From NCBI RefSeq assembly GCF_013315695.1, contig NZ_CP054353.1: a stretch of 64,000 nucleotides of DNA. One strand, 5' to 3'. The stretch's first letter is position 1; every line of letters starts with the position of its first letter. Below the pieces are notes generated by a model that ran no database searches, was not told the origin of the DNA, and was given only the letters and a program-made list of their open reading frames with translations. Made by a program: the position numbers and the translations under genes. Source of the DNA: Escherichia coli (GTDB lineage: Bacteria > Pseudomonadota > Gammaproteobacteria > Enterobacterales > Enterobacteriaceae). This document shows, piece by piece, positions 9,052-62,787 of the stretch.

Positions 9052-9191
9052 CAGTTGTGTTTATGTTCGCCGGAATCATCCATGACTGGCGCGCAGATCT
9101 CACGCGTTGGGGGGTGTGAGGGGGTTCTTACAACAGAACCGAACGGAAACGACCGGAACTGCGTGGGATGATACGTATACGGGAGGGCTGC

Positions 9192-10337
9192 ATGAACATC
9201 ACTGAATCACTGACACTTCACATCAACAGTGCACTGGATACCGCAGAAGACACAGTGCGGGTACCGGATTTCAGTATCACACTGGAAGGGCGGGATGCCA
9301 GCCTGAAAAACATCACGCAGCGCATCATGCGTCTCACCATGACAGACAACAGGGGATTTGAGGCCGACAGGGTGACACTGGAAATCGACGACGCTGACGG
9401 TGAGGTGGTTCTTCCGGAACGCGGCACCCGATTATCGCTGACCATGGGATGGAAAGGGGGAAGCCTGACAAACAAAGGGACGTTTGTTGTGGATGAAGTG
9501 GCGCACGACGGACCACCGGATAAGCTCACCATCTCCGCGAACAGCGCGGATTTTCGCGAAGAGTTTAACGTGAAACGCGAAGTCTCCTGGCATGACGTGA
9601 CGGTGGAGCGCGTGGTGTCTGCCATTGCCCACCGTTACGGACTGAAGGCACAAATCAGCGAGATGTTGATGGATATTGAAATCGACCATGCAGACCAGAC
9701 AGAGGAAAGTGATATGTCATTCCTCACTCGCATGGCCGACATGCTGGGTGCAATAGCCACCGTAAAAAACGGGTGTCTGCTGTTCATTCTGCCGGGAGGC
9801 GGCGTCACCGCCAGCGGTCGCGCCCTCCCCTCATTCGCCCTGACCCGCTCTGACGGAGACGGCCACCGCTTTCGCATTGCTGACAGAAACGCCTATACCG
9901 GAGTGAAGGCCCACTGGCTGGATTTAAAGTTCGGTCAGAAGAAGGCCGTGAACGTGAAAAAGCGAAACGCGCAAACCACGAAGAAGCCGGAGAAAAGCAG
10001 TGCGCGGGAAGGTGGTTACATGGAAGGCGCAGAGGGTAACGTGTATGTACTGAGAAAAACCTACCCGAACGAAGAAGCCGCGCGTCGTGCAGCTGCCGCA
10101 CGCTGGCAGCAACTTCAGCGGGGCGCAGCGGAATTCAGTATCACGCTGGCGCGCGGACGTGCTGACCTGTATCCGGAGATGCACGGCACGGTATCCGGAT
10201 TCAAGAGCGACATTGACAACCAGGACTGGATTATTTCGCGCATTGAGCACGTCATCGACGACAGCGGCTTCACCACCAGACTGGAGCTGGAAGCAAAAAT
10301 CGCAGACTGGATAGCAGAGAGTAACACGACTGGCTAG
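9192..10337 (+). CDS. phage late control/tail protein gpD-like
   Basis: ATG at 9192 with GGGAGGG SD; length and position before ogr as in P2. Confidence 0.8.
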   Translation: MNITESLTLHINSALDTAEDTVRVPDFSITLEGRDASLKNITQRIMRLTMTDNRGFEADRVTLEIDDADGEVVLPERGTRLSLTMGWKGGSLTNKGTFVVDEVAHDGPPDKLTISANSADFREEFNVKREVSWHDVTVERVVSAIAHRYGLKAQISEMLMDIEIDHADQTEESDMSFLTRMADMLGAIATVKNGCLLFILPGGGVTASGRALPSFALTRSDGDGHRFRIADRNAYTGVKAHWLDLKFGQKKAVNVKKRNAQTTKKPEKSSAREGGYMEGAEGNVYVLRKTYPNEEAARRAAAARWQQLQRGAAEFSITLARGRADLYPEMHGTVSGFKSDIDNQDWIISRIEHVIDDSGFTTRLELEAKIADWIAESNTTG

Positions 10338-10378
10338 AATGAGCGCGAGCCCACCCCGTTTCAGCCAGGGGGACCATC

Positions 10379-10681
10379 ATGCATCCTTGCCCATACTGCG
10401 GAGCAAGCACCCGCACCAGAACAAGCCGCAACGCCAACGACACAGGAACAATCAGGGAGAAATACTATCAGTGCAACAACATTGAATGCAGCGCAACCTT
10501 TGTGACGCACGAGTTTGTCGTGAGAACCGTATGCCGTCCGCAACCCACCGAAGAACGGGGAATCATCCCCACAGACGCTTTCAAATCATGCCACCGGGGA
10601 AGGGAACAACTCAGCCTCCCCCTGGGCGATTGCTCCTCCCAGTCAAAAACTGTACATTACGCGCGGGTGCCTTTCGGCTGA
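10379..10681 (+). CDS. ogr: Ogr/Delta-family zinc-finger late-gene activator
   Basis: N-terminal CPYCG..RTSR...YYQCNNIECSATF zinc-finger pattern typical of P2 Ogr; ORF is longer than the 72 aa of P2 Ogr. Confidence 0.75.
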   Translation: MHPCPYCGASTRTRTSRNANDTGTIREKYYQCNNIECSATFVTHEFVVRTVCRPQPTEERGIIPTDAFKSCHRGREQLSLPLGDCSSQSKTVHYARVPFG

Positions 10682-11193
10682 CGGCTGGAAGGATTACCTG
10701 AAGGCCGGATGTGGAAAGGCCCCGAGTCAAACATATTGTTTAACCCGAGGCCCTAACCATCCAACCGTGACAAGTGGAAGGTTAGCGCCTCTTTGAAAAA
10801 GGAGCAAGCGCTATGCCGCAAAAAACGATCATCGTGAGCATTTTATGCTTAACCATGTTGTTGACCGTCTGGATGATACACCGTTCGCCGTGTGAATTCA
10901 GACTTAACATCATGTGGTCAGAATTTGCGGCGTTCTTGCAGTGTAAACCGTAAGAAACCGCAGCGGGGGTGAAAGCCCCCGCTATCCGGTTGTTAAAGGT
11001 TCAGTCGAAAGTCGCACCCTTGCATGCAAGTCACAAAGAAAAAACAAAGCCCGTAGCGTAAAAACTGCGGGCTTTTTTGTTTCAAAGATGGACGTTATAT
11101 GGACACCTGAAAATAAATTCCTTTTATTTTCAATTAATTAACATAATGCAAAAAGCGCCCGCAGGCGCTTTTTAGATTCAGAAAAATTGGGTA

Positions 11194-28836: not shown

Positions 28837-29157
28837 TCAGGCTTTTTCTAGCGTACACAGCAATGGATGCTCATTCTCCCTCGCGTACTTGTTCACCATC
28901 GCCACTTTGGTTTCTGCAACCTCGGCGGTAAAGACTCCGCAAATGGCCTTCCCCTGGTAGTGAACAGCGAGCATCAATTGCGTTGCACGTTCTACATCAT
29001 AAGAAAAGAATTTTTGTAACACGTCAATAACAAACTCCATCGGAGTGTAATCATCATTGACTAATATCACTTTATACATAGATGGCGGTTTTAGCGCGTC
29101 GCGAACTTTTTCTTCCGCCAGTTGATCAAAGTCCAGCCAGTCGTTCGTTTTACCCAT
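28837..29157 (-). CDS. clpS: Clp protease adaptor ClpS
   Basis: 106 aa [42 protein letters not shown]. Confidence 0.95.
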
Positions 29158-29328
29158 TGTCAGTTATCATCTTCGGTTACGGTTATCGGCAGAACGCCCT
29201 GCCGCTGACAAGAGCTTATTTGCCTGACCAATCTACTCCACATGATAGATAACTATCATTTATAACATCTCATTGATTAGTCTTTATTTTTCATTGTGTT
29301 ACAAATAACAGCTCTGTCAAAAACAGCG

Positions 29329-29355
29329 AAATTAACTACACCATTAACTACACCG
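29329..29355. repeat. 27-bp direct repeat AAATTAACTACACCATT(A/G)ACTACACCG, left copy (right copy 40368-40394); candidate integrase binding or att sequence
   Basis: two copies, one mismatch, each followed by clustered CGAACAA motifs (29356-29395 and 40400-40510). Confidence 0.5.
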
Positions 29356-30293
29356 TTTCACGAACAATATCGAACAACCACGAACAAAGATCAACACGCT
29401 TTAACCGTTATCATTTTCCGGCTATCCGTTATGAAGCTGGTGGATGTTCCCCGATATGGGGATCCCCACCTACCGGAATTTTTGCCAGGTTAAATGTTAA
29501 CCTCTGCCCTGTTAACATTTTTACCAAAAAGGTAGTTAACATTTTTTGCACGCAACCAGATGAATCATAAAGAAAAAATCAACAACAACGCTTCATCAGG
29601 CAGTTAACATGTTAACTACTACGAAACGGTAATTTTTTCTCTGCGTGAGAGGGGGCGCGGTGTCCAGCTTATTCGTTGTTCGTGGCTAACCACTCCCCCC
29701 CCATGCCGGATTTTTTTTCCGGTTAACTGTTAATCAGGCTGGTGGGTTTTACATACCCTTGATCACCGTAATGATGATCCAGATCTGCACATTTCCACCA
29801 ATGGTGGAAAAGCCCACAGCAGGCCGCCCAGCCTCCACCAATGGGGTAAAAGCATCAACCGTAACGAAAGTCGTTATGGTTGCCACCGATACCCCAAATT
29901 TGGGTATCACGAGTAAGCCCCAAAATCTGGGTGTTACTCTTACCACCCAAACTACGGGTAGTTTCCGTAGTTTCATGGTCGAGTTGCAGATCTGCAACTC
30001 CCCCATTAACCACAGGCGAATTTCCGCCTTCGGTCATTCCTTAATCATCTGCGTAATCATAATGATTATTCAGCAAGCGCAATTTTGCGCTTTGCTTAAA
30101 GTTCAGCGAGTTACCGCGCCGACTTCCTCAAATTGAGGTTTCCGAAAATATCAGCGGGTTAGCGATTAAGCTGATCATTAATTAAACTGCGAAAATTTCG
30201 TAGTTTGTGACTGTCTTTCAGGCAGCTTGTTAACAGTCCTCAGAAGCGAGGGATGTAGCCACCCATTTTTGGTCCGTCGGGAATATCAACCAG

Positions 30294-30575
30294 TTACCGC
30301 CGCAACCGCTCCGGCTTCTTCCAGTGGTACGTTATTTTCTCCTTCTCCCGATACATCTCCACGCGGCGACGGTAGGCCAGCAACTCAAGAACTCTGGTTC
30401 GTATGTTGCGCATATCCACGCCATTAAGTTCTATACCATCACGGCGCATCACCTCCGCAACAACACGCGCATAATTTTCAGCGGTCACGCTGTCCGGCTG
30501 CGTGGCCTGTTCGTCAACCTGCTGGCTGATTCCGGCAACGCGGCGGATTAATCCCAGTATTTCGGCTTCTGTCAT
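30294..30575 (-). CDS. hypothetical protein (93 aa) next to the left cos site
   Basis: ATG with G-rich SD; no family recognised. Confidence 0.45.
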   Translation of the reverse strand: MTEAEILGLIRRVAGISQQVDEQATQPDSVTAENYARVVAEVMRRDGIELNGVDMRNIRTRVLELLAYRRRVEMYREKEKITYHWKKPERLRR

Positions 30576-30610
30576 TGTGCCCCCATCGTTCTGATAGTCT
30601 GGTGTCGTCG

Positions 30611-30840
30611 GGTCCTTCCTGGAATTATGGCCCGTTACGGGGCGGCGACCTCGCGGTTTTTCGCTATTTATGAGATTTTTTGAGGGGGTGGTTGTTGTTT
30701 AATTGTTTGGTATATCTAATTGATAAGTAAGGTAAAAATAAAATAAATACAACAACCTTACGATGTATTTTGATGTCATTAATGTGAAAAAATTCAATGA
30801 TATCAAATGGTTTTGTAAAAACACATGGTTGTTGTATCGC
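30611..30840 (+). other. lambda-type cos site, copy 1 (cosQ-like, cosN GGGCGGCGACCT at 30640-30651, cosB-like region pointing rightward)
   Basis: GGGTCCTTCC..GTTACG-GGGCGGCGACCT-CGCGGTTTTTCGCTATTTATGAG closely matches remembered lambda cos; three GGTTGTTGT repeats (30690, 30749 inverted, 30828) as candidate TerS sites. Confidence 0.6.
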
Positions 30841-31008
30841 GTATTTGATGGCGTAACAGAAAGTGATTTTTAACTTTACCGCTCTGTAACTACGGATTAT
30901 TCCATGCTGGCACGGAGAACGGCTACGGCATGACGCCACCCAGCCTATACAGCACAGTAAAGCCGATAAATTGTTAATCACGCGCAGCAATGCGTGTGAT
31001 TTTTGCAC

Positions 31009-31206
31009 ACTTCCGGTTAACGGGTACGATGTCCGGTTTTAGTGTCTGTTTTTTGCGCATGTCCGGTTCATAGAAAGCATGTTTTTATATTTTTCATATG
31101 GTTAACTTGCAGAGAAACCGGACATGGATCCCGGAAAATTTTCATAAATAGTGAAAACGCGCGAGGTCGCCGCCCCGTAACGGGTCCATATGCCGGAAAG
31201 GACCCG
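31009..31206 (-). other. lambda-type cos site, copy 2, inverted (cosN on the minus strand at 31164-31175, cosB-like region pointing leftward)
   Basis: minus strand reads GGGTCCTTTCCGG..CCCGTTACG-GGGCGGCGACCT-CGCGCGTTTTCACTATTTATGAAAATTTTCCGG, near-identical to remembered lambda cosQ-cosN-R3; three ATGTCCGGTT repeats (31029, 31059, 31116 inverted). Confidence 0.65.
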
Positions 31207-31208
31207 TA

Positions 31209-31233
31209 AAAAAAAGCCGGATTTCTCCGGCCT
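31209..31233 (-). terminator. rho-independent terminator ending the island capsid operon
   Basis: minus strand GGCCGGAGAAATCCGGC followed by T8, directly after the 137-aa gene stop. Confidence 0.55.
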
Positions 31234-31237
31234 TGTC

Positions 31238-31651
31238 TCAGATGGTTTTCAGTATGCGATCGATGTCGCCGTCATCGCCCTGGTTTCTGCCATCGTACGC
31301 CATGCCAGCTGATACGGCTTGCGGGCTGTGCATGTCCATAAAGTTTTCAAAGGCTGCGGTAAGCTCTGGTGCAACCTTTGGGCGCTCCTGCTCTATGGTC
31401 ATGTTCAGGATTTCACGAGCATTATCGACGCTAATACATGGCACGTTTGCCATTGCACGTAACAGCGGCTGATAGTCGTTATGTTCATGAAGCGCCATAA
31501 TCGCATCAGCGCGCGGCTTGTCCTGTTCTTCCAGTTTGTTGAGTTGATATACGGCCTCGTAGGTTGATAAACCTCTGTCAGCCATTGCCCGCGCTTCTGC
31601 TTTAAATTTACTCGCCAGCGGTAGCGCCATGATGCTTTCATTCGTTGCCAT
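31238..31651 (-). CDS. hypothetical protein (137 aa), last gene of the capsid operon
   Basis: ATG with AGGGGAA SD; no family recognised; candidate packaging-redirection factor by position only. Confidence 0.5.
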   Translation of the reverse strand: MATNESIMALPLASKFKAEARAMADRGLSTYEAVYQLNKLEEQDKPRADAIMALHEHNDYQPLLRAMANVPCISVDNAREILNMTIEQERPKVAPELTAAFENFMDMHSPQAVSAGMAYDGRNQGDDGDIDRILKTI

Positions 31652-31663
31652 CGTTTCCCCTGC

Positions 31664-31999
31664 TTATCGCGCCAGCGGCTGAACGGATACGCCAGAACCC
31701 GCAAAGGCGGCGCATTTTTTCGCGTCAGTGTCGGCGCTCTCAGGCCAGTTTACGGCGGCGATATTAAATATCCCCGTCTTGTAACACTGTGCTGATTTCT
31801 GCTTTGACGTGTCCACGGGGTACGAAGTCAGATAAACAGCCTTGCCAGATTCCTGACCATCCCACGGCTTAAACTCGCCATTGTCCGCCAGCATCAGCGG
31901 GGTAAATTCCTGAATAACGCCAGCATCAGCGGCAAAATGTACCAGCGTCGTGGATACCTGCTGACTGCCTGCAAATAACTCAATGTATGGAGTGTCCAT
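31664..31999 (-). CDS. head decoration protein, lambda gpD-like
   Basis: 111 aa; shares TPLMLD, WDG, YK(S/T)G.F, WPE, AFAG motifs with remembered lambda gpD (110 aa). Confidence 0.65.
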   Translation of the reverse strand: MDTPYIELFAGSQQVSTTLVHFAADAGVIQEFTPLMLADNGEFKPWDGQESGKAVYLTSYPVDTSKQKSAQCYKTGIFNIAAVNWPESADTDAKKCAAFAGSGVSVQPLAR

Positions 32000-32011
32000 A
32001 GAATCCCCCCG

Positions 32012-33067
32012 TTAACCAATTTTGACGGTAACAAATTTGCGAATATCTGCCGGAACCGGCTGCGGTGCGCTGTGCGTCTGCACGTACTCAATCGCCGGAT
32101 CGCCGTCCTCAATCCAGTTTTTCGGGTAAAACATGTTTTGCGTTGCGCCCGTTCTTACCGCTTCCTGTTCCAGGATCGCACCATAGGCCACCAGCCCTTT
32201 ATTGTTGGTGTTGCCCAGGACCAGCAAATCAGGCTCAAGGAAATATTTTTCTGTGCCGTCGCTGTCAGTGTATTTGCCGGAATAGACGATAAGGGCCAGA
32301 TCACCAAGATAGCCTTTAAAGCTCACCACTTCGCCCAGGTTTTTACATGCCAGCTCTGCGGCGGATTCTGAACCACGGGAGAGATCGTACAGTTCACGGA
32401 ATTTTTTAAAGCTGCGTAACATGCGCCATACATCAACGCCCATAATCATGACGTTTGCGGGGCAACCTGCCTGATCTGCGTATAGCTCAATGTCATAGAT
32501 TGGGTCGTGTATGTCTTTGTCCTGCTCTGACCATTTTTTACCGTCGGCCTGCTCTATGATGTTTTTTTCCGGTATCTTCCAGTCGATTTCATAGCGCTCT
32601 ATGCCTTCGCCCTCAATGATGTTTTTTCCGGTCGTTACCGCATTTACCGCCAGCCATTCCACGCGCGCTTTAATGGCGTTTATCTGGCGGCGCATGTTGC
32701 CAGTAATCAGGCGCATACGGCGGTAGGTAGGGTCGTTAAGCTGTGCTGGATCTTCTCCAGCCATGCGCATTATTGTTTTTAATGGATCGATTTCGTGTTT
32801 TGGCTTCATGTAGCCAGGGCGAATAATGCTTGTTTCGTACCCTTTATCGCGCTGAACCTGGCTACCCACCATAGGCGAACAAAACGCCGACATAGTGACT
32901 TCTTCAATATCCAGGTTATCTAACATGATGTCCTGTGTGTTGAATGTCGCCACGTTCGGGAAAAACAGCGCGGTAAACAGCGGACTGAATTTAAATTCCG
33001 CAATATCCTCGCGATTCAGGTACGCAAAAAGCTGGTTAGTGTTAAGTGCTATTGCTTTTACTGTCAT
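32012..33067 (-). CDS. major capsid protein, lambda gpE family
   Basis: 351 aa; collinear similarity to remembered lambda gpE (FKF.PLF..LFF, PGY(V/M)KPKHE, DP.YRR.R, YPKNW..GDPA, SAP); start overlaps the upstream stop (TAATG). Confidence 0.85.
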   Translation of the reverse strand: MTVKAIALNTNQLFAYLNREDIAEFKFSPLFTALFFPNVATFNTQDIMLDNLDIEEVTMSAFCSPMVGSQVQRDKGYETSIIRPGYMKPKHEIDPLKTIMRMAGEDPAQLNDPTYRRMRLITGNMRRQINAIKARVEWLAVNAVTTGKNIIEGEGIERYEIDWKIPEKNIIEQADGKKWSEQDKDIHDPIYDIELYADQAGCPANVMIMGVDVWRMLRSFKKFRELYDLSRGSESAAELACKNLGEVVSFKGYLGDLALIVYSGKYTDSDGTEKYFLEPDLLVLGNTNNKGLVAYGAILEQEAVRTGATQNMFYPKNWIEDGDPAIEYVQTHSAPQPVPADIRKFVTVKIG

Positions 33068-33273
33068 TATTCACCCCCGTGAACCTGATTCATACCCAGC
33101 GCCGCGCGTAAATAGGCGCGTACCTGCCAGCCTGTTGACGGCTCAACCATCGCCAGCGGATCAAGTCCTGCCGCAATGCCTGCTTTTACGTTCTGCTGGT
33201 GGCGTTCCTTGAGCGCCTTCACGATGTCGGGGCTTATGTACACCGAAACACCGCCTTTTTTCTCTTCAGCCAT
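33067..33273 (-). CDS. hypothetical protein (68 aa), first gene of the capsid operon
   Basis: ATG with AAGAGG SD; translationally coupled to the capsid gene. Confidence 0.5.
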   Translation of the reverse strand: MAEEKKGGVSVYISPDIVKALKERHQQNVKAGIAAGLDPLAMVEPSTGWQVRAYLRAALGMNQVHGGE

Positions 33274-33302
33274 AGTAAGAAATTCCTCTTTGACTTAAAA
33301 AA

Positions 33303-33357
33303 TCATAACTGGATGTTCATCCAGTTATGATTATAATCATGATTGCATTTTGTGCAA
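33303..33357 (-). promoter_or_regulatory. promoter of the island capsid operon with a 28-bp palindromic operator
   Basis: minus strand TTGCAC-N16-TATAAT immediately followed by perfect palindrome TCATAACTGGATGAACATCCAGTTATGA. Confidence 0.5.
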
Positions 33358-33527
33358 TGATATTGAGTTGCGTTGCAAATTATGAAATTATTATCCCGAT
33401 CATGTGTGTCAGTGCACCAAAAAACCTCATATGCAAAAGCCCGATAAGCCACCTCTGACCTTATCGGGCTTTTTTTGGGCGCAAAAAAGCCGGATTGCTC
33501 CGGCTGTGTGGTGTGGTTCTGGTATTC

Positions 33528-33776
33528 CTACTCTGCTAATTTGCTCAGCCCCATGTCTGCGTAAGTGCGATTTACTGCATTTCTCAGGTCTGCATAGTTC
33601 TCCGTTGGCGGCTCCGGTGGCCTCTGTGCCTTCCTGGAACATTCCAGCCGTCGCATCGTGATGTGATGCCGTTCCTTGTCTGTCTCCACCAGCATCATGA
33701 CTTCACCCCATCGCGCCGCCGCCCTCCGGTAAAATCCTTTCGCTTCGAGTTCTTCCGCTATGCGGTCATGTACCAT
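33528..33776 (-). CDS. small regulator, possibly PerC/Pch-family transcriptional activator
   Basis: 83 aa from ATG 33776 with GAGGGGG SD; LEAKGFYRRAAARWGEV resembles the PerC-family core as remembered; weak call. Confidence 0.35.
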   Translation of the reverse strand: MVHDRIAEELEAKGFYRRAAARWGEVMMLVETDKERHHITMRRLECSRKAQRPPEPPTENYADLRNAVNRTYADMGLSKLAE

Positions 33777-33786
33777 CGTCACCCCC

Positions 33787-34197
33787 TCAGAACGGAATAT
33801 CATCACCGTAAGGGTCATCGCCTCCCGCTGGTGGCTGATTACCCTGTGCGCCTGTGGTTTTGCGTCTGTTCCCGCCAGGACGTGCCGCACGGGCACTGAT
33901 TACGCTGTCTGCAATAACCTGATAACCCTGACGCGTCTCCCCGTTCTGTCCGGTCCACTGGCTTACCTGCATCGTGCCGGATACGCTGGCAACGTCGCCT
34001 TTTTGATGTTTAGCCAGGAAGTCGGCCTGCTTACCAAATGCGATGACCGATAGCCATAACGTCGCCTGTCCGTCCTGTGCCTGACTGCATGGCAGTGATA
34101 CCGCCATACGCGCCAGCGTCATCGGTGTGCCCTTGCTGGTCTGTTTTACCTGCGGGTCGTCCACCAGCCGACCGTAAGCCGCTATCTGTGCTGTCAT
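33787..34197 (-). CDS. single-stranded DNA-binding protein (SSB-like)
   Basis: 136 aa; OB-fold pattern (W..V.AFGK.A, KGD.V.V.G, W....G..R) and C-terminal acidic tail ...DDPYGDDIPF typical of SSB. Confidence 0.65.
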   Translation of the reverse strand: MTAQIAAYGRLVDDPQVKQTSKGTPMTLARMAVSLPCSQAQDGQATLWLSVIAFGKQADFLAKHQKGDVASVSGTMQVSQWTGQNGETRQGYQVIADSVISARAARPGGNRRKTTGAQGNQPPAGGDDPYGDDIPF

Positions 34198-34445
34198 GAT
34201 TCCACCTCTCCGGTTTTAACGTTGATGGTTGTTACCTGTTCCGCTTCGGCAATCTCCCGTTCTGTCAGCGTGGCAAAGTTTGCCGCCGCCGTGGTCATGA
34301 ATGCGCTTATCAGGTCGGGATGTTCCTTCGCGTATCCTTCCCGCGTGTGGCGGTCTATCGTTCTGATTGCCACCTTTAAGGTGTGCTCAGTCATGTCTAA
34401 CGCTTTATATTTTGGCTCTGTTCTGTCTCTGCGTGTTCTGGTCAT
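34194..34445 (-). CDS. hypothetical protein (83 aa)
   Basis: ATG 34445 with GAGGTGG SD; stop overlaps the SSB start (ATGA). Confidence 0.4.
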   Translation of the reverse strand: MTRTRRDRTEPKYKALDMTEHTLKVAIRTIDRHTREGYAKEHPDLISAFMTTAAANFATLTEREIAEAEQVTTINVKTGEVES

Positions 34446-34469
34446 TTGCCACCTCAATTTATATATATA

Positions 34470-34805
34470 GAAACATGTGCGGGTTATGCGGGTTATTGGG
34501 TTATCTTAGCGTGCTAACCATTTTTTATCCTTTTATATCAGTATTTTGCAAAACACCCTGTTTATTATTTGCCCACCACGTAACCCGCAAAACGCTCAAA
34601 ATAACCCGCAAACGGGGTTTTTTCTGCGGGTTACGCATGACTGTCCGGTGTTACTTCAGTTATTCGCCTGCGGGTTATAATCGTGCTTTTGCGGGTTATA
34701 AATGCCCTTTTGCGGGTTACGTGCGGGTTATTGGTTTCCTTTATATTCATGCACTTAATACACTTATACACAGGATAACCCGCATAACCCGCAATTTTTT
34801 TCCTC
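34470..34805. repeat. iteron array, candidate replication origin of the island
   Basis: at least 12 copies of GCGGGTTAT / ATAACCCGC in both orientations within ~330 bp of AT-rich DNA, directly downstream of the primase-replicase gene. Confidence 0.65.
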
Positions 34806-34815
34806 ACACAGGGGA

Positions 34816-36939
34816 TTAATCTTCATCATCAGGCTGGAACATCAGCACGTAAAAAACATGCTGCTTACCCCCAATCTTGCCCAGCGCCTTTTTTTTGTAT
34901 CGGCGATCGCTTCCCTTCTCCAGCATTCCGGCAGCATCCAGGGCACGCGCAAAATGCGCCGGATTAAATCCCTTCGCTATCTCACTCTCAAACACGTGCG
35001 GGAACGTGTAATAGCGCATCTCGTCATCTTCGTTGCGAATGCTCCCTTTTCTGTATCCGGCAAGCTCTTTAATCGGTAAATCACGCTCATCTGTATTGGG
35101 GTACGGAAGGTAGCGGCTAAACCCAAACGACGACAAAAACGCCTCAGCCTGTTCAACCATCTGTTTAAATTCCCTGTTACCCGTGCCGAACTCCTTCACC
35201 CAGGCATTAAAGTTATGCTGTATCGCGTCGCGGCATTCCTGCACGACCCAGCCAGTTACATGACCGGAAAGCACAAGCGCGGCCTCCAGTATGGCGAAAC
35301 GTTCACCCACGCGGTGGACCTGCTCGCCGTAGCTCTCCGGTATCAGGTTGCGCCACCGTTCGCGGCATTCCCTTACCGTATCCTTTGCCTCCTGCTGGTG
35401 GCCTGCCAGCCATTTAACCCACTCACGACCCGCCGCCCCGTGATTTGCTGTCCAGGCATCCTTTAACGCGTCAGCATGTTCCTTACCGTTGCTGTATTCG
35501 TGAAATTTCGTGGCTTTTTCCATCGGAACGTTAAGCAGTCGGACAAGCTGCCCCGCCTTAACTTTTATCCCCTCACTTTTGAGGAATGTCTCAACGTCCA
35601 TTTCTCCGGTGCTGATTGCCACCGTTCGCCAGTGTTTGATCTCCCTGTTGCCGCCATCCTTCGCCCCCTGCAATTTCCCTGAACCGTTAAACAGCGTATA
35701 AGCAGACGTTGACACTTCCCGCGCATTTCCGGCCTGGCCTATCTCATCCAGTGGTAAAAGCCCGTCATTATGGGCCTCGGCCTCATTGGCAATACCTAAC
35801 GCCGTGCCGTACCAGGTCAGCCGCTGCGCGTCCGGCTCTCCCCATAAACTTGATGCGATGTTCTGCGTGGTGGTCTTACCTGCCGATGACTGTTCGAAAA
35901 GATGCACCCCGAAGCCGTCAGCACCCACAAGGCCAATTAAAGGCGCTGCCAGTGACGTTGCCACACCCAGCATCATTGAGGCATTACCGCCAGCCAGCCG
36001 CGCCACACTCTCGCGCCAGCCCTCCGCCGTACCCGCCACGGAATAACCGTTAATCGCGGCGCTTTTTCCGGTAAACAGGATCGGTTTTTCAGAATCACCA
36101 ATGATCGAACCGTCCGGCATGATGTACGCGCCAAAATGCCAGCCCGTTGTTGTGCTTAACTGCCATTCCTCATGGCTTCCGCTTAACTGCATCCAGTCCG
36201 CCAGGATTGCCCTGTATTTGCCGTTGGTTGTCACGTTCAGCCCGTGATCTTTAAGTAACCGCCAGCCGTCACGGTCGCCGATACCACCACACGGGATCGC
36301 CATTGTGATGACTTCATGATTTGCTAATTTTTTCCAGCGCATGACGCGGTAATGCTCTTTACCGATCGTCCCCGTTCCCAGTAGTTCAAGCGGAGAACAT
36401 AACCACGTCTCAGGCCGGATAATTTCGCCTGACTGCTTATCCACTTTGGGCGTTACCCAGAAAACACCATCGGCGCGACTTTCAACGCGTGGCTTTAATT
36501 CGTCATCGCTATGGCTTCCGGTATCTTTTTTCTTTACCGGAAACTCAATAACCAGACCATCAGAAAGATTCTGCCGCTCACGGGCCAGATATTCGCGCCA
36601 GTTCTCCACCTCCTGACCGTGCATTCCATCAGGGTAAAAATTTGCATCCTGTACGCCTGCCGCCGCCAGCTTCTGACCAATCGCCTTGATCATTACTGGC
36701 TCAAGATGTCCGGCCCTGAATATGCGTACTGATTTTCGGCCTTCCGGCACAATTTGCAGCTTATCCAGTTCGGCAAGTTGTTGCTCTCCAAGCCAGACAG
36801 GAGGCACGTTATCGCCAGCCAGTCGCCCGTCCTGTTCCTGCCACTGTTTCGCATGTGCCCAGGCATCACTACCCGCAAAAATGATGACTTCCGTCATTTT
36901 GTCACGTGGCTGGTGTTTTAAATTTGGCGCTTTTTTCAT
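34816..36939 (-). CDS. primase/replicase (P4 alpha-like or PICI Pri-Rep-like)
   Basis: ~707 aa from ATG 36939; Walker A-like SSAGKTT; position next to the iteron ori; ATG overlaps the upstream stop. Confidence 0.75.
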   Translation of the reverse strand: MKKAPNLKHQPRDKMTEVIIFAGSDAWAHAKQWQEQDGRLAGDNVPPVWLGEQQLAELDKLQIVPEGRKSVRIFRAGHLEPVMIKAIGQKLAAAGVQDANFYPDGMHGQEVENWREYLARERQNLSDGLVIEFPVKKKDTGSHSDDELKPRVESRADGVFWVTPKVDKQSGEIIRPETWLCSPLELLGTGTIGKEHYRVMRWKKLANHEVITMAIPCGGIGDRDGWRLLKDHGLNVTTNGKYRAILADWMQLSGSHEEWQLSTTTGWHFGAYIMPDGSIIGDSEKPILFTGKSAAINGYSVAGTAEGWRESVARLAGGNASMMLGVATSLAAPLIGLVGADGFGVHLFEQSSAGKTTTQNIASSLWGEPDAQRLTWYGTALGIANEAEAHNDGLLPLDEIGQAGNAREVSTSAYTLFNGSGKLQGAKDGGNREIKHWRTVAISTGEMDVETFLKSEGIKVKAGQLVRLLNVPMEKATKFHEYSNGKEHADALKDAWTANHGAAGREWVKWLAGHQQEAKDTVRECRERWRNLIPESYGEQVHRVGERFAILEAALVLSGHVTGWVVQECRDAIQHNFNAWVKEFGTGNREFKQMVEQAEAFLSSFGFSRYLPYPNTDERDLPIKELAGYRKGSIRNEDDEMRYYTFPHVFESEIAKGFNPAHFARALDAAGMLEKGSDRRYKKKALGKIGGKQHVFYVLMFQPDDED

Positions 36940-37235
36940 TTCTGCTCTCTCCACGCGGCAATCATGTTTTTCAGTTCCTGTAGTTTTTTATCCACATCCA
37001 CACGTGACACATGGTTATTTCTGGAAGTCGGGATTTCCCGCCTGAATCTGCTAATAAAGATCTCCACGTTCAGCGAACTATGAAATGAATAGCCATCACG
37101 AATAAAATACACACGGTCAAACATCAGTTCTTTTACCGTTACTCTGTTGCCGTTCTTATCCAGATAAATAGCGCCGGGGATAATTTTGGGGTGTGCATAA
37201 CCGCTGGCAGTCAAGCCAGATAAATATGTTCTCAT
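36936..37235 (-). CDS. hypothetical protein (99 aa)
   Basis: ATG start; coupled to the primase. Confidence 0.45.
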   Translation of the reverse strand: MRTYLSGLTASGYAHPKIIPGAIYLDKNGNRVTVKELMFDRVYFIRDGYSFHSSLNVEIFISRFRREIPTSRNNHVSRVDVDKKLQELKNMIAAWREQK

Positions 37236-37241
37236 GATTAT

Positions 37242-37562
37242 TTATCCCCGATTTGAATCAGTATTCGCTTTCTTTATAGCATTTAATGCATTTGTGGCAT
37301 TTTCAATGGTGCACCGTAACGAAATATCAAACTGCCCAAGCATTGCCAGTAACAAACCGATATTACCCATATCAATGCGCATGGCCTTTTCGTCATATTC
37401 CTCATTTTCTGACGCATACCACATCAGGCTACCAATTGACGCAATACCCATTGATATATTGTCAGTAGCCCCATCCGCAGCGGAATAAACTTTTTTAGCA
37501 ATATCATGCTCACAGTTAAAATGCGGATTAATCAGGTACTGGTAATTGGTCATGTCAGGCAT
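37242..37562 (-). CDS. hypothetical protein (106 aa)
   Basis: ATG start; first gene of the leftward operon. Confidence 0.45.
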   Translation of the reverse strand: MPDMTNYQYLINPHFNCEHDIAKKVYSAADGATDNISMGIASIGSLMWYASENEEYDEKAMRIDMGNIGLLLAMLGQFDISLRCTIENATNALNAIKKANTDSNRG

Positions 37563-37839
37563 GGCACACCCCCTGACGAATACGGGCGGCGAATACCATC
37601 ACGCAGCCAGCCGGGGATTGCTGGCGTGCTTCCTGTTCGCTGCTGGCCTCAATGGTAATCACGCGCGGTTGTGCCGTGCTCAGGGCGATAAAACGCCAGA
37701 TGTATTTATTCAGGTTGTGCGAGTCCCGCCCTTGCGGGTGTGTGGTATGATTTAACATAGCTACCTCGATACTGTTGCTATCGTTGGTTGTTAGACGCCC
37801 TGCATGTGTTGCGAGCACTGCGGGGCGTTGCTCTTTCAG

Positions 37840-37885
37840 GTGTATTTCACCTTTGCTTTTTAATTTACTCACTGGTGAAATACAC
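37840..37885. promoter_or_regulatory. operator-like perfect 12-bp inverted repeat GTGTATTTCACC-N22-GGTGAAATACAC in a divergent promoter region
   Basis: lies between the divergent 106-aa gene and the small + strand gene. Confidence 0.45.
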
Positions 37886-37951
37886 TTCAAGCCTTTTTTT
37901 ATCATTTTTTTTGCGTATACTGACATACACCAATTTTTAGGAGATCCAGAA

Positions 37952-38131
37952 ATGGCAACTGGTGCAAAGAACGCAAAATCACAAATGACAACTGTCAGAA
38001 TCCCACATGAAGTAATGGATGATATTGAGCAACTTAAAGAACCTGGCGAAAGTACCGCTGGTTTTTTAGTTACTGCCGCAAAAGGCGAGATCAAACGCCG
38101 CCAGCGCCGCAAGGCCAAAGAATCAGAATAA
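37952..38131 (+). CDS. small DNA-binding protein, possibly ribbon-helix-helix (59 aa)
   Basis: ATG with AGGAGA SD; TTVRIPHEVMDDIEQL resembles an RHH beta-strand/helix; basic C-terminus. Confidence 0.4.
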   Translation: MATGAKNAKSQMTTVRIPHEVMDDIEQLKEPGESTAGFLVTAAKGEIKRRQRRKAKESE

Positions 38132-38188
38132 TCACTATCAGCGCCGTGGCGTGAGGTACTCCGGCGCATTGCTTTACAGGTCAGTACT

Positions 38189-38398
38189 ATGAGCAAAAAA
38201 CACCGATCAGCAGATGAGATTTTTGCAGAACAACGAAGATTGCTTTTGCAAAGTATCATTTCACGCCAGCAAGAGAAGGCGCGAGCTAAACAAATGCCAC
38301 CAAATACAGAACCAGCGCCTACAAGATTTGCGCTTGATGATTTTCTCGATAAACACCCCAGGGTAATGAAAGCAAACAAAAACCGCCCACCAGCCTGA
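38189..38398 (+). CDS. hypothetical protein (69 aa)
   Basis: ATG start; followed by a terminator at ~38441-38468. Confidence 0.35.
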   Translation: MSKKHRSADEIFAEQRRLLLQSIISRQQEKARAKQMPPNTEPAPTRFALDDFLDKHPRVMKANKNRPPA

Positions 38399-38440
38399 TA
38401 GCGGCTATCATCCCCGTGCTTATGTTTAGTGTTTCCAAAC

Positions 38441-38468
38441 TGGCGACCTCCCAAGGTCGCCTTTTTTT
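38441..38468 (+). terminator. rho-independent terminator after the rightward small-gene pair
   Basis: GGCGACCTCCCAAGGTCGCC followed by T8. Confidence 0.55.
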
Positions 38469-38488
38469 TATGTGCCATTGTCACCACC

Positions 38489-38698
38489 TCAAGCGGCCTT
38501 GCCTGAATTAATGCGTTCGCGGTTTTTGACCCACGCCACAACCTCAGACTTAACCCAGCCAACAGAACGACCGCCGAGACTGATACGGGAGGGGAAGCGG
38601 CCCTGCTTTTCCATCTCGTAACGAGTTGTGCGGCAAACGCCTGTTAGCTCTCTGCATTCTTTTTCGCGGATTACGCGATCTTCATTTATTTCACGCAT
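38489..38698 (-). CDS. alpA: AlpA-family transcriptional regulator / excisionase-like
   Basis: 69 aa from ATG 38698; helix-turn-helix pattern (CRELTGVCRTTRYEMEKQGRFP...GGRSVGWVKSEVVAWV) and position next to int. Confidence 0.65.
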   Translation of the reverse strand: MREINEDRVIREKECRELTGVCRTTRYEMEKQGRFPSRISLGGRSVGWVKSEVVAWVKNRERINSGKAA

Positions 38699-39107
38699 AC
38701 AAAAACCTACATAAAAATTACGTATATAAACTTTTCTCTTAGCTGTAGATATATGAGATCGGATATTACTTAGATTCTTTTTCACCTCTTAAATTAAAAA
38801 CACAACCATGCTAAAGGCTTTGTTCGCTAAGGTTCGTAGAAGCTCGTTAGTGTTTAAAATCGTGTCACGAGTTTTTAAGCGACGCAACAAAAAATGTCGT
38901 TATTTGGCATGACACCTGAATTACCTCATTAAAAACAAATAGATAAACCATCAGGTGTTGGAACAATCAAGAAACAGAGAATAAGAACTAAGAAGAAGAC
39001 ATTTCAAATTTTTTCAATACTTGACACATATAAATCGTCGATATTTGCCGATATTCGACGATTTATTTTAGAGGGCCATTTTTCGCAAGAAAAACAGCCG
39101 TAATTTG

Positions 39108-40346
39108 TCAAGAATTTTGGGAGTAAATTCGCGGGGTCATAACAACGATTTTTTCATCATTGTTCTGGAGAAGCTCGAGACGCTCAACCCATAGATTAAG
39201 AGCGTCACGTTTTGCATCGAGATAACGGGAGTGATTATAGACTCGTTGCATTCCTGGCAACTGGTGCGCGGTTAGCTGCTCCACTACATGAGGATCCACG
39301 CCTAAATCGTTCAGCATCGTTGTAAACGTGTGCCGGATGTCGTGCAACGTCCAGGGGGCTTGATTAATGCGTCTGTGTGCCGTTCTTCCGTACTCTGATA
39401 CAGATGATTGCCCTTTCAGTTCTCCGAGTAATAAGCCCGTGTGTCGGTTCTGCTCCACCAGCTTCGTTACGAACGGCAAGATCGCTTCCGGTATTGGCCT
39501 GAATATTGCTACCTTCGTTTTGCTGTGTTCTTTCGGCACAGTCCAGAGCATTTCTTTAAAATCCCATTCCTGGACCTCAGAGCGTCTTAGCTCAGTGGTA
39601 CGGCATCCGAAGACAATCAGGAGGCGAATCAGGGCGCTGTAGTACGGTGTGTAAATTTTTTCATCCAGGGCGCGTAGTAATTCCCCAAGCTCCTTGTTTG
39701 TTAGTACGCGCTCGCTTATTTCTGCTTTTTTCCCAACATCACCTACAACCATATCATCTAGAACGTTGGTAATTGCGTAGCGTCGTTTGCGGCAGTACTT
39801 AAGCGCCTGCTTGCATACCTGTAACAAAAATCCTGCTGATACCGGATTACGCATAGCAAGCTGATCAAAACAGGTCAGCCAGTGGCGTAGCTCGCATTTT
39901 TCCAGCGGCATAGCACCAATATGGCTGATTATGTGTGTATTGATCCGGCTTTTCAGAGATTCGTAATCTGTGCGCTTTTCCTTCGCGTACGATTCAAGCC
40001 AGTAAGTGAGCGCTTCCTTAACCGTAACAGGTGATAACGCTTCCTGTACGGTGTGATTAAGCTCATGGCGTGGATTTTTACCCTCAGCAAGCCAGGCGCG
40101 ACACTGCGACGCTTTTTCCCTGGCTGCTTTCAGGCTCAAATCTGGATAATTTCCCAGCCTCAGACGTTCAGGGGCTACCTTCCTGCCTGTTCCGGCCCTG
40201 TAAGTGAAATACCAGGTTAACAGGCCATTGGTTGAATGCCTTACGCTAAGGTTGCCACCATCATTAAAAAAGGTGTTTTTTGTGGTTGGTGATCCGCTTA
40301 ATTTTCGTAAAAGAGTGTCGCTAAGTCTATGAATTGCCCTGCTCAT
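39108..40346 (-). CDS. tyrosine site-specific integrase (P4-type)
   Basis: 412 aa; C-terminal catalytic motifs (R..TELRRSE, HDIRHTF, Y near the C-terminus); at the island edge. Confidence 0.9.
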   Translation of the reverse strand: MSRAIHRLSDTLLRKLSGSPTTKNTFFNDGGNLSVRHSTNGLLTWYFTYRAGTGRKVAPERLRLGNYPDLSLKAAREKASQCRAWLAEGKNPRHELNHTVQEALSPVTVKEALTYWLESYAKEKRTDYESLKSRINTHIISHIGAMPLEKCELRHWLTCFDQLAMRNPVSAGFLLQVCKQALKYCRKRRYAITNVLDDMVVGDVGKKAEISERVLTNKELGELLRALDEKIYTPYYSALIRLLIVFGCRTTELRRSEVQEWDFKEMLWTVPKEHSKTKVAIFRPIPEAILPFVTKLVEQNRHTGLLLGELKGQSSVSEYGRTAHRRINQAPWTLHDIRHTFTTMLNDLGVDPHVVEQLTAHQLPGMQRVYNHSRYLDAKRDALNLWVERLELLQNNDEKIVVMTPRIYSQNS

Positions 40347-40750
40347 GTTTCGAATTTCCGGTCATCAAAATTAACTACACCATTGACTACACCGAGCATC
40401 GTACAAGGGCGAACTGTGACGAACAAGGGCGAACAAGAAAAACGAAATTATCCTTTATAATCATAGAAATAAATGAGATACCTACACCATGACGAACACC
40501 CACGAACACTAACTGATAAATAACTATCATCTATCGTTGGCATCAGCGACATCTGTCACATTCCTGTCAATAGCGTTAACTGCTTCAAATTTTTGATTCA
40601 TACCTGCCCCCTGGCCCCTGTCAAATGCTTGACGGCTCGCCCTAATTCTCTAAATTGTATTTCTAGAGTTGGCGAGGTTTTGAACAGCCCCCTCTCTGAC
40701 CCCGGTTTATTCCATCTTACTTGTATAAGATTTGCGAAGGATGTCGAAGC

Positions 40751-40975
40751 ATGGAAAAGGGTACTGTTAAGTGGTTCAACAATGCCAAAGGGTTTGGTTT
40801 CATCTGCCCTGAAGGCGGCGGCGAAGATATTTTCGCTCATTATTCCACCATTCAGATGGATGGTTACAGAACGCTAAAAGCTGGACAATCCGTTCAGTTT
40901 GATGTCCACCAGGGGCCAAAAGGCAATCACGCCAGTGTTATTGTGCCCGTCGAAGTAGAAGCGGCAGTCGCATAG
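40751..40975 (+). CDS. cspD: cold-shock-like protein CspD
   Basis: 74 aa MEKGTVKWFNNAKGFGFICPEGGGEDIFAHYSTIQMDGYRTLKAGQSVQFDVHQGPKGNHASVIVPVEVEAAVA. Confidence 0.95.
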   Translation: MEKGTVKWFNNAKGFGFICPEGGGEDIFAHYSTIQMDGYRTLKAGQSVQFDVHQGPKGNHASVIVPVEVEAAVA

Positions 40976-41047
40976 CTCTTCTGTCTCATTGTGTACATCC
41001 TAAAGGCAAAATGCCAGCCCGATCGGCTGGCATTTTTATCTCAAAAA

Positions 41048-56780: not shown

Positions 56781-56874
56781 TGTGCTGAACTGGGCGCTCG
56801 CCCGAGGTTACGTCCCTAAAATTCAACTATGCTGAGAATTCTTAATGTGATCGGTAGCACGTTTTACGAATTAA

Positions 56875-58001
<1,127 letters not shown>

Positions 58002-58130
58002 AATTTGCGATGCGTCGCGCATTTTTGATGTAAGTTTCACGCGTTGCATAATTAATGAGATTCAGATCACATATAAAGCCATAACGGGTTCGTAAACTGT
58101 TATCCCATTACATGATTATGAGGCAACGCC

Positions 58131-60126
<1,996 letters not shown>

Positions 60127-60319
60127 TATTTTCCCTTTTCTGTTAATTATTGAGAATAATTATTACTTCACTTAATAAGCTGCGGATATAACATTCTGAA
60201 CCGCAGCTATTTGTGAATCCTTTCACAGTTTAAATTTCCCCACGCGCATAGCCTTAATATCAGCACGCAATATTTATTTAGCGTTCGCCTTAATTACTCA
60301 TAGCATTAAGGAAGATCAC

Positions 60320-61558
60320 ATGCCGCAACAAAATTATCTGGATGAACTCACTCCGGCTTTTACGCCTTTACTGGCGATTAAAGAAGCCTCTCGCTGTTTA
60401 TTATGTCATGACGCTCCCTGTAGTCAGGCTTGCCCGGCACAGACCGATCCGGGGAAATTTATTCGCTCAATCTACTTTCGTAATTTTAAAGGTGCTGCCG
60501 AGACAATTCGCGAAAATAATGCCCTCGGTGCCGTTTGTGCCAGAGTGTGCCCGACGGAGAAATTATGCCAAAGCGGTTGTACACGTGCCGGTGTTGATAC
60601 TCCCATTGATATCGGTCGCTTACAGCGTTTTGTTACTGATTTTGAACAACAAACTGGGATGGAAATTTATCAGCCCGGTACTAAAACGCTCGGCAAAGTC
60701 GCGATTATTGGCGCGGGTCCTGCCGGATTGCAGGCCAGTGTGACACTGACAAACCAGGGTTATGACGTCACGATCTATGAGAAAGAAGCACAACCCGGTG
60801 GCTGGTTGCGTAACGGCATTCCGCAATTCCGGTTACCGCAATCAGTACTGGATGCAGAAATCGCCCGTATTGAAAAAATGGGCGTGACCATTAAATGCAA
60901 TAACGAAATCGGTAACACACTCACCCTGGAGCAGCTGAAAGCGGAAAACCGCGCGGTACTGGTCACAGTGGGGTTATCGAGCGGTTCGGGGCTACCACTG
61001 TTTGAGCATAGCAACGTTGAGATTGCCGTCGACTTCTTGCAACGTGCACGACAGGCGCAAGGCGATATCAGCATTCCACAAAGCGCATTAATTATCGGCG
61101 GCGGTGATGTCACGATGGACGTAGCCAGCACGCTGAAAGTTCTCGGCTGTCAGGCAGTAACTTGCGTAGCGCGTGAAGAGTTAGATGAGTTTCCGGCAAG
61201 CGAAAAAGAGTTTGCCAGCGCCCGGGAGCTGGGCGTTTCGATCATTGATGGATTCACGCCAGTAGCCGTGGAAGGCAATAAAGTCACGTTTAAGCATGTA
61301 CGGTTACCGGGCGAACTGACGATGGCGGCAGATAAAATTATTCTCGCCGTCGGTCAGCATGCCAGACTGGATGCCTTTGCGGAGTTAGAGCCGCAGCGTA
61401 ACACCATCAAAACACAAAATTATCAGACCCGCGATCCGCAAGTCTTTGCTGCTGGCGATATTGTTGAGGGTGACAAAACCGTGGTCTATGCCGTGAAAAC
61501 CGGGAAAGAAGCCGCCGAGGCGATTCATCACTATTTAGAGGGAGCTTGCTCATGTTAA
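60320..61558 (+). CDS. preT: NAD-dependent dihydropyrimidine dehydrogenase subunit PreT
   Basis: 412 aa; Cys-rich Fe-S motifs and GAGPAG dinucleotide-binding site. Confidence 0.9.
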
Positions 61559-62787
61559 CGAAAGATCTTTCGATTACTTTTTGCGGCGTGAAGTTTCCCA
61601 ACCCGTTCTGCCTCTCTTCTTCGCCTGTAGGCAACTGCTATGAGATGTGTGCCAAAGCCTACGACACAGGCTGGGGCGGCGTGGTGTTTAAAACGATCGG
61701 CTTTTTTATCGCCAACGAAGTCTCGCCGCGTTTTGATCATCTGGTGAAAGAAGATACCGGTTTTATCGGCTTCAAAAATATGGAGCAGATTGCTGAACAT
61801 CCGTTGGAAGATAATCTGGCCGCCCTGCGTCGGCTGAAAGAAGATTATCCGGACAAAGTATTGATCGCTTCAATCATGGGCGAAAATGAGCAGCAATGGG
61901 AAGAGCTGGCGCGTCTGGTGCAAGAAGCTGGCGCGGATATGATCGAGTGTAACTTCTCCTGTCCGCAAATGACTTCTCATGCGATGGGTAGCGATGTCGG
62001 GCAAAGCCCGGAGCTGGTAGAAAAATATTGTCGGGCAGTAAAACGTGGTTCCACGCTGCCAATGCTGGCGAAGATGACGCCGAATATCGGTGATATGTGC
62101 GAAGTGGCGCTGGCGGCGAAGCGCGGCGGCGCAGATGGCATTGCGGCGATTAACACCGTTAAATCCATCACCAATATCGATCTTAATCAGAAAATCGGTA
62201 TGCCGATCGTTAACGGTAAATCGAGTATTTCCGGATATTCCGGTAAAGCGGTAAAACCGATCGCCCTGCGCTTCATTCAGCAAATGCGTACCCATCCAGA
62301 GCTGCGCGATTTCCCGATCAGCGGTATCGGCGGTATTGAAACCTGGGAAGATGCGGCAGAGTTTTTATTGCTCGGTGCAGCGACGTTGCAGGTGACCACC
62401 GGCATTATGCAGTACGGGTATCGGATAGTGGAAGATATGGCGAGCGGGTTGTCGCATTATCTCGCCGATCAAGGGTTTGATTCGTTGCAGGAGATGGTAG
62501 GTCTGGCGAATAACAATATTGTCCCGGCGGAAGATTTAGACCGCAGTTATATTGTCTATCCCCATATCAATCTTGATAAATGTGTTGGCTGTGGACGCTG
62601 TTATATTTCCTGTTACGACGGCGGTCACCAGGCGATGGAATGGAGCGAGAAAACCCGTACACCGCATTGTAATACCGAGAAATGTGTGGGTTGCCTGCTT
62701 TGTGGTCACGTCTGCCCGGTGGGTTGTATTGATCTCGGAGAAGTGAAGTTTAAGAAGGGAGAGAAAGAACACCCGGTAACGTTGTAA
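61552..62787 (+). CDS. preA: NAD-dependent dihydropyrimidine dehydrogenase subunit PreA
   Basis: from ATG 61552 ([19 protein letters not shown]...); C-terminal ferredoxin-like Cys clusters. Confidence 0.9.

Follow-up and report, generated by a model that had tools for sequence, protein, structure and literature searches.

What kind of mobile element separates clpS from cspD in this Escherichia coli genome, and whose capsids would carry it out of the cell? We analysed a stretch of 64,000 nucleotides from contig NZ_CP054353.1 (hereafter, the window), in which a block of minus-strand genes lies between clpS (28837-29157) and cspD (40721-40975). An earlier description, made without database searches and referred to below as the sequence-only reading, had placed an element of about 11.3 kb here, with a satellite-type backbone, lambda-type cos sites and homologues of the lambda capsid proteins gpE and gpD, and had proposed that it builds its own shell. 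With high confidence, we assign the element to the Gram-negative phage-inducible chromosomal islands (PICIs), namely to the cos-packaged EcCICFT073 family, inserted at the known cspD-clpS site at the 3' end of yljB. By comparison with published islands, it is closely related, as a mosaic, to EcCICFT073 and EcCIIHE3034. The novelty that had been considered possible did not hold. The combination of E and D homologues, two cos sites and an int-alpA-pri backbone is that of the published EcCICFT073 archetype, and the insertion site is already catalogued as well. The architecture is thus that of a canonical Gram-negative PICI, which has been dissected both genetically and structurally.

The boundaries of the island are sharp. 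A 17-bp direct repeat, TGATA[G/A]ATAACTATCAT, with one mismatch between its copies, occurs exactly where the sequence-only reading had drawn the ends of its element:

29243..29259, no strand: attL core TGATAGATAACTATCAT, direct repeat with attR; junction exact against the empty sites of K-12 and MSB1_4I
29324..29396, no strand: left-arm repeats, CGAACA-type motifs spaced about 10 nt apart and tandem TTAACTACACC (two copies); families D1 and D2
40363..40508, no strand: right-arm repeats, CGAACA-type motifs, the counterpart of 29324-29396; families D1 and D2
40514..40530, no strand: attR core TGATAAATAACTATCAT, overlapping the yljB stop codon

Excision of 29260-40530 in silico recreates the chromosome of E. 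coli MSB1_4I, which has an empty site, with 6 mismatches in 30,300 bp; the island is therefore a precise insertion of 11,271 bp. The site is also uninterrupted in K-12, which has no island. The flanks are 99.98-100% identical to those of MSB1_4I (NZ_LR898874.1), which points to the island having been gained or lost very recently in this lineage. The core overlaps with the stop codon of yljB, a small gene, and attL contains, as its reverse complement, ATGATAGTTAT. This is the core listed for PICIs at cspD-clpS, namely EcCIIHE3034 and EcCI18098 (Table S1 in Fillol-Salom et al., 2018, ISME J; PMC6092414). The repeat families D1 and D2, common to both island ends, are probably the arm-type binding sites of attP for Int and accessory proteins, as predicted from their position and from the Arm-DNA-bind_3 domain of Int.

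Gram-negative PICIs are delimited by a size of about 10-20 kb, bounding att sites and a PICI-specific chromosomal site. The island has the size and attachment site of an EcCICFT073-type PICI, an int-alpA pair, a primase gene with iterons, cos and a capsid gene, and it has no phage structural gene set. An intact rpp or terS gene is missing; a 22-codon remnant of rppA is present and no homologue of TerS was found. Since Rpp and TerS do not occur in all published PICIs, this feature marks a subtype rather than the family. All main genes of the island lie on the minus strand and share one direction of transcription. The backbone comprises the following features:

39108..40346, minus strand: P4-type tyrosine integrase (Pfam Arm-DNA-bind_3 and Phage_integrase)
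38489..38698, minus strand: alpA, excisionase/regulator (phrog_2790 and phrog_66)
38189..38398, plus strand: 69-aa hypothetical protein, a divergent small gene; with the next it forms a pair spanning 37952..38398
37952..38131, plus strand: YlcI/YnfO-family protein (NF041551, 61.7 bits against a cut-off of 30)
37555..37758, minus strand: 67-aa Icd-like protein
within 37242..37758, minus strand: 106-aa phrog_15327 protein (PHROG)
36936..37235, minus strand: DUF4222 protein (phrog_285; PGAP name in relatives)
34816..36939, minus strand: primase/replicase of 707 aa, with a shared N-terminal domain, DUF927 and a Cch-type HTH
34471..34800, no strand: predicted replication origin, AT-rich DNA with 12 TGCGGGTTAT iterons around it in both orientations
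34194..34457, minus strand: 87-aa conserved hypothetical protein (phrog_1231)
33787..34197, minus strand: single-stranded DNA-binding protein, ssb (TIGR00621, 58 bits against a cut-off of 53.95; phrog_44)
33528..33776, minus strand: PerC-family transcriptional regulator (PHROG transcriptional-activator families; so named by PGAP in strain CEA601S, whose island is 98% identical)
30294..30575, minus strand: 93-aa conserved PICI protein, h93 (phrog_1561; dN/dS 0.32)

The P4-type integrase, AlpA, the primase with adjacent iterons and the SSB had all been recognised in the sequence-only reading, and they were borne out by Pfam, PHROG, TIGR00621 and sequence shuffling. Identity of the integrase is 92.5% to that of EcCIIHE3034, which uses the same attachment site, and 77% to that of EcCICFT073; the corresponding values for AlpA are 81% and 57%. 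The h93 protein is 85% identical to the product of the last gene of EcCICFT073 and 88% identical to that of EcCIIHE3034. The primase/replicase matches phrog_1139 DNA primase (E 1e-189) and Pfam DUF927 (E 8e-48), and it resembles EcCICFT073 Pri over the first ~150 aa only; the latter's C-terminal part belongs to a primase family, whereas DUF927 is found here. Of 18 matches to TGCGGGTTAT in the whole window, a number attained in none of 100 shuffles, 12 fall in 34478-34793, just 3' of pri. This layout agrees with that of published origins of Gram-negative PICIs.

The same gene order, int-alpA-...-DUF4222-pri-ori-ssb-perC-h68-MCP-D-h137-cos-cos-h93, is found in EcCICFT073 (E. coli CFT073, NC_004431.1 1377930-1388654), where MCP is the major capsid protein and h68, h137 and h93 are the 68-, 137- and 93-aa proteins. 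The two islands share capsid module proteins with 93-97% identity, two inverted lambda-type cosN sites and a stretch of ~3.2 kb, from ssb to the cos proximal to h137 (cos B below), with 95% DNA identity. EcCICFT073 is attached near phoQ and the present island at cspD-clpS. EcCIIHE3034 carries the same capsid module (identity 91% for MCP, 98% for D and 92% for h137), but its primase is of the CFT073 type, a 180-aa Nu1-like terS lies between its cos sites, and only ~60% of the present island aligns with it at the DNA level. Pieces of the island were detected in 2,781 of 5,426 complete E. coli genomes, and at least 80% of the query in two of them. Among complete RefSeq E. coli genomes, the island never occurs at 100% identity; the best match shares 98.1% identity over 90% of its length.

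The gene content also bears on two other satellite types. A capsid-forming PICI (cf-PICI; Alqurainy et al., 2023) combines, as here, the PICI backbone with genes of capsid families. However, cf-PICIs encode portal, protease, adaptors, TerS and TerL and steal only tails, whereas here only MCP, the decoration protein and a scaffold fragment are present; no portal, protease, head-tail adaptor or connector, TerS, TerL or HNH protein was detected by PHROG or tblastn. Assignment to the P4-like satellites could draw on the P4-type integrase, AlpA, the primase and the Icd-like gene, as well as on a P2-like prophage located 18 kb away in the same window. Against this, the PHROG matches include no homologue of Sid, Psu or Delta, no cos of P2/P4 type occurs within 3 mismatches, and the cos sites are lambda-type. 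We consider a cf-PICI or a P4-like satellite extremely improbable.

The capsid genes form a compact operon:

33067..33273, minus strand: 68-aa protein (h68), equivalent of c1498 (phrog_3255); ATGA overlap with the capsid gene start
32012..33067, minus strand: major capsid protein (MCP), gpE family, equivalent of c1499 (Pfam Phage_cap_E, E 3e-49)
31664..31999, minus strand: head decoration protein, gpD family, equivalent of c1500 (Pfam HDPD, E 1e-17)
31238..31651, minus strand: 137-aa Nu3-like scaffold fragment (h137), equivalent of c1501 (phrog_1999, E 4e-64)
31213..31234, minus strand: terminator-like hairpin closing the operon, a 9-bp stem followed by a T run

The presence of gpE and gpD homologues, as claimed earlier, is therefore well supported by the Pfam matches. 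MCP is 43% identical to lambda gpE and 95% identical to c1499, and the decoration protein is 37% identical to lambda gpD and 97% identical to c1500. A database search with these two proteins, which the sequence-only reading had recommended, showed that the architecture is already catalogued. Namely, the description of EcCICFT073 lists a 'putative capsid protein (c1499)' and a 'head decoration protein (c1500)' (Fillol-Salom et al., 2018). A literature search combining PICI and gpE gave no match, and the terms used in PICI papers are 'capsid protein' and 'head decoration protein'. A major capsid gene is carried by 21 of 29 reference Gram-negative PICIs (Mageeney et al., 2023), and SatelliteFinder treats 'capsid morphogenesis' as one of the five core components of PICIs.

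The third protein of the module adds a modest new point. The sequence-only reading was correct in that the island has no terminase, portal, protease or tail genes but not in its claim that a scaffold is absent, as h137 is Nu3-like. Residues 117-200 of lambda Nu3 match the same family as h137, phrog_1999 (E 2.7e-26); h137 also matches the C-terminal section of the phrog_53 head maturation protease (E 7e-10) and is 32% identical to P0041, a Nu3-like scaffold of 195 aa. In a lambdoid record, the stretch homologous to h137 is the C-terminus of the protein encoded immediately upstream of D and E. A pairwise BLASTP comparison of h137 with lambda Nu3 gave no significant match and Pfam gave none, so the link to Nu3 exists at the profile level only. 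Judged by these profiles, h137 and the c1501 family to which it belongs (93% identity to c1501 of CFT073) are Nu3-type scaffold fragments. NCBI calls some h137 homologues 'phage head-tail connector protein', a name at odds with the profile link. Word-indexed and exhaustive HMMER searches with h137 returned almost only E. coli PICI copies, and the family is accordingly narrow.

The operon h68-gpE-gpD-Nu3C is intact and under purifying selection. The dN/dS values relative to CFT073 are 0.14 for MCP, 0.10 for D and 0.23 for h137, and h68 shares 99.5% nucleotide identity with its CFT073 counterpart. The genes are not pseudogenes, a possibility that had been raised for E and D as an objection. A PICI lineage thus carries a trio of major capsid protein, decoration protein and scaffold under purifying selection. 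Since no MCP in 50,697 phage records exceeds 48% identity to that of the island, this lineage is long-standing and not the result of a recent capture.

These data also speak to the question whether the island is a degraded lambdoid prophage that has kept cos, E, D and part of C/Nu3. All of these sequences are indeed features of the lambdoid head region. However, the gene order h68-E-D-Nu3C-cos is not the phage order cos-Nu1-A-W-B-C/Nu3-D-E; the backbone is int-alpA-pri-ori; and the module is 91-98% conserved across PICIs at different attachment sites while remaining at or below 48% identity to phage MCPs. The insertion is precise and has core genes on both sides. PHROG scans of all island ORFs revealed no lysis, tail, portal, large-terminase or cI/cro genes, and tblastn of the whole 64-kb window (E <= 0.01) was negative for lambda Nu1, A, W, B, C, FI and FII and for three PICI/prophage TerS variants. 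Contiguous phage genes, the other objection raised in the sequence-only reading, are thus not present at this locus. The view that the island is a prophage remnant is effectively refuted.

The lambda-type cos sites reported earlier are real, and there are two of them. The exact lambda cosN, GGGCGGCGACCT, occurs only twice in the window, at 30640-30651 on the plus strand and at 31164-31175 on the minus strand, in both cases inside a 72-nt inverted repeat:

30598..30850, plus strand: cos A, with a cosQ-like stretch, cosN 30640-30651 and a complete cosB of phage type (three GTTGTTGT motifs)
30879..30944, minus strand: rppA remnant, the last 22 codons (tblastn, residues 123-144 of EcCICFT073 RppA, 73% identity, E 9e-5)
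31019..31206, minus strand: cos B, with a cosQ-like stretch, cosN 31164-31175 and a complete cosB of phage type (three CCGGACAT motifs)

E. coli O103:H2 12009 has a lambdoid prophage whose cos, directly upstream of terS, is nearly identical to cos A (cosN plus ~195 nt). Cos B has two near-identical counterparts, one upstream of terS in a lambdoid prophage of E. coli O55:H7 CB9615 and the other being the h93-proximal cos of EcCICFT073, apparently its cos2. The TerS proteins of the O103 and O55 prophages share their C-terminal halves and have unrelated N-terminal parts, and thus different DNA-binding domains, which indicates two different cosB specificities on one island. In the 2018 description of EcCICFT073, no phage cosB was recognisable (Fillol-Salom et al., 2018). 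The near-identity of the cosB at its h93-proximal cos to that of the O55:H7 CB9615 prophage indicates that a phage with the matching specificity exists.

The segment between the cos sites differs from that of EcCICFT073. In the latter, rppA lies between the cos sites and an Rpp-specific cosB is found at the adjoining cos, apparently cos1; the position of rppA is fixed by the CFT073 annotation and by a 144-aa gene between the cos sites that matches RppC (6hlk). RppA binds the TerS of the helper and redirects it to the cosB of EcCICFT073 cos1 (Fillol-Salom et al., 2019, Mol Cell; PMC6739421). In the present island, rppA is reduced to the 22-codon remnant and a cosB of the O103-prophage type occupies the position equivalent to cos1. 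The inter-cos segment (30652-31163) is a mosaic with a palindromic junction, rearranged relative to CFT073, in which the sequence downstream of rppA appears inverted beside the forward 3' remnant of rppA. A single inversion between the cos repeats does not account for this history because it fails to explain the orientation of the remnant. We also considered h93 and h137 as candidates for Rpp; PDB searches with both gave nothing.

An rpp-less island with two cos specificities would represent a 'two-helper' packaging design, the second modest new point of this analysis. Rpp-independent packaging via two prophage-type cos sites bears on how satellites widen their range of helpers. A direct helper-type cos has a parallel in HE-PICI 11capE, a Gram-negative PICI with a gpE-family capsid gene and without terS (Mageeney et al., 2023, NAR Genom Bioinform), which has 258 bp including cos in common with its lambdoid helper, at 90% identity. 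That element sits inside the capsid gene of the helper, whereas the present island is chromosomal and has two cos sites of different specificity.

The published behaviour of EcCICFT073 suggests how the island would spread. Two cosN sequences resembling those of lambda and phi80 are present in EcCICFT073; both of its cos sites are functional, and it is packaged via cos by lambda, phi80 and a resident lambdoid prophage (Fillol-Salom et al., 2018). Induction that depends on a helper has likewise been demonstrated for close relatives of the present island. By analogy, the earlier expectation that a lambdoid helper should mobilise the island is likely to be correct. In the life cycle that we propose, lytic growth of a lambdoid helper would turn on the alpA-led leftward operon, and Int and AlpA would excise the island as a circle of 11,271 bp. 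The DUF927 primase/replicase would then fire the iteron origin just downstream of its own gene, giving rise to concatemers. The helper terminase would recognise the island cos and package the DNA into helper-made lambda-type heads with helper-made tails, about four units (45.1 kb) per full-size head. Owing to the two phage-type cosB, two classes of helper terminase would recognise the island directly; without Rpp, Rpp-based interference with the helper would be lost. For this copy, activity, use of both cos sites and packaging as tetramers are all expected from the characterised archetype. Its precise presence here and absence from the otherwise 99.98%-identical strain MSB1_4I give indirect support to its activity.

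The number of units follows from the length of the island: one unit is too short, and about four would fill one head. Four units of 11,271 bp amount to 45,084 bp, which is 93% of the lambda genome. Lambda heads package DNA of roughly 78-105% of genome length, and the value of 93% lies inside this range. Since 45.1 kb fits a lambda head, no smaller shell is needed, contrary to what had been supposed in the sequence-only reading. This agrees with EcCICFT073, in which all packaged DNA was phage-sized and no band of the PICI monomer was seen (Fillol-Salom et al., 2018).

One alternative is the reading from which the analysis started. Namely, the island would build its own, smaller lambda-type shell from gpE and gpD, together with the Nu3-like protein, and package a single genome of 11.3 kb, while the helper would provide portal, protease, terminase and tail. 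Several observations are in line with this proposal. The module consists of intact genes under purifying selection (dN/dS 0.10-0.23) and is translationally compact, a scaffold-like protein is present besides MCP and the decoration protein, and the MCP lineage is PICI-specific. Furthermore, SaPIbov5 Ccm and PmCI172 offer precedents for satellite capsid homologues tied to small capsids. SaPIbov5 likewise combines a helper cos with a homologue (Ccm) of the helper major capsid protein, and Ccm drives small-capsid formation and interference; no such phenotype is associated with the gpE homologue of the EcCICFT073 family, and SaPIbov5 is a Gram-positive element with an unrelated backbone. The genetic data for EcCICFT073 speak against a self-made shell. 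Deletion of c1499 or c1500, whose products are 95-97% identical to those encoded here, altered neither interference nor transfer (Fillol-Salom et al., 2018), and an island in which cas9 had replaced c1498-c1501 was still delivered, according to a paper of 2020. Also, transfer was better when the marker left the size of the island unchanged, as expected for multimers in full heads. Together with the phage-sized packaged DNA and the fit of four units to a lambda head, these results make it quite unlikely that the island supplies its own shell. By analogy with EcCICFT073, the capsid module would be dispensable for transfer.

A related idea, and the most novel one considered, is that the conserved four-gene block acts as a working capsid-remodelling or capsid-decoy device with an overlooked phenotype. 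The marked EcCICFT073 islands were c1501::tetA or c1499::cat; as c1501 was interrupted or c1499 replaced in these constructs, the published capsid sizes may not reflect a module with all three genes intact, which also qualifies the case against a self-made shell. The helpers tried with EcCICFT073 comprised only lambda, phi80 and one resident prophage (Fillol-Salom et al., 2018). If the idea were correct, an intact module combined with the right helper could yield chimeric or smaller heads, or could poison the heads of non-helper phages. We regard such a function as unlikely.

Several points weigh against assignment of the island to the functional cos-packaged PICIs of the EcCICFT073 family. 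The lack of Rpp and TerS may mean poor transfer or partial decay, and for EcCIIHE3034, published at the same site, transfer out of the native strain was very poor. The inter-cos segment shows visible rearrangement, and the exact two-cos arrangement occurs in only 13 of the 5,426 complete E. coli genomes. The convergent cos sites, ~520 bp apart, could interfere with each other; in EcCICFT073, deletion of cos2 raised lambda-mediated transfer (Fillol-Salom et al., 2018). Finally, no lambdoid helper was found within the window, in which the sole visible prophage is P2-like.

The left end of the island contains an accessory region with little recognisable content:

29397..30290, no strand: left accessory region without a recognisable gene; patchy similarity to EcCICFT073 and EcCIIHE3034

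Searches of this region against PHROG, NCBIfam and PADLOC gave no match. It includes a Gly-rich ORF of 60 aa (29855-30037, minus strand), which overlaps long ORFs in two other frames, carries the annotation "hypothetical" in strain CEA601S, whose island is 98% identical, and has no match in PHROG or PADLOC. PADLOC did not identify any defence cargo in the island, and Rfam revealed no RNA genes in it, the sole match being a cspA-type leader at cspD, outside the island. This match to the cspA thermoregulator (40646-41039, plus strand) is sub-threshold, with 41.6 bits against a gathering score of 78, and covers the cspD leader and gene just outside attR.

Two further regions of the window deserve mention. 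Positions 1-10950 contain the tail and late-control end of the P2-like prophage, located beside serS and including genes for tape measure, sheath, tube, a gpD-like late control protein, ogr/delta and hok/gef; its capsid and terminase genes lie outside the window. Since ~18 kb of core genes separate this prophage from the island and the window contains no P2-type cos, the two are unrelated. K-12 has no counterpart of the region 48230-64000 between aqpZ and lysO. The annotation of this region in 100%-identical genomes comprises genes for 3-hydroxybenzoate/gentisate catabolism (mhbT, 3-hydroxybenzoate 6-monooxygenase, and gtdA) together with preT/preA.

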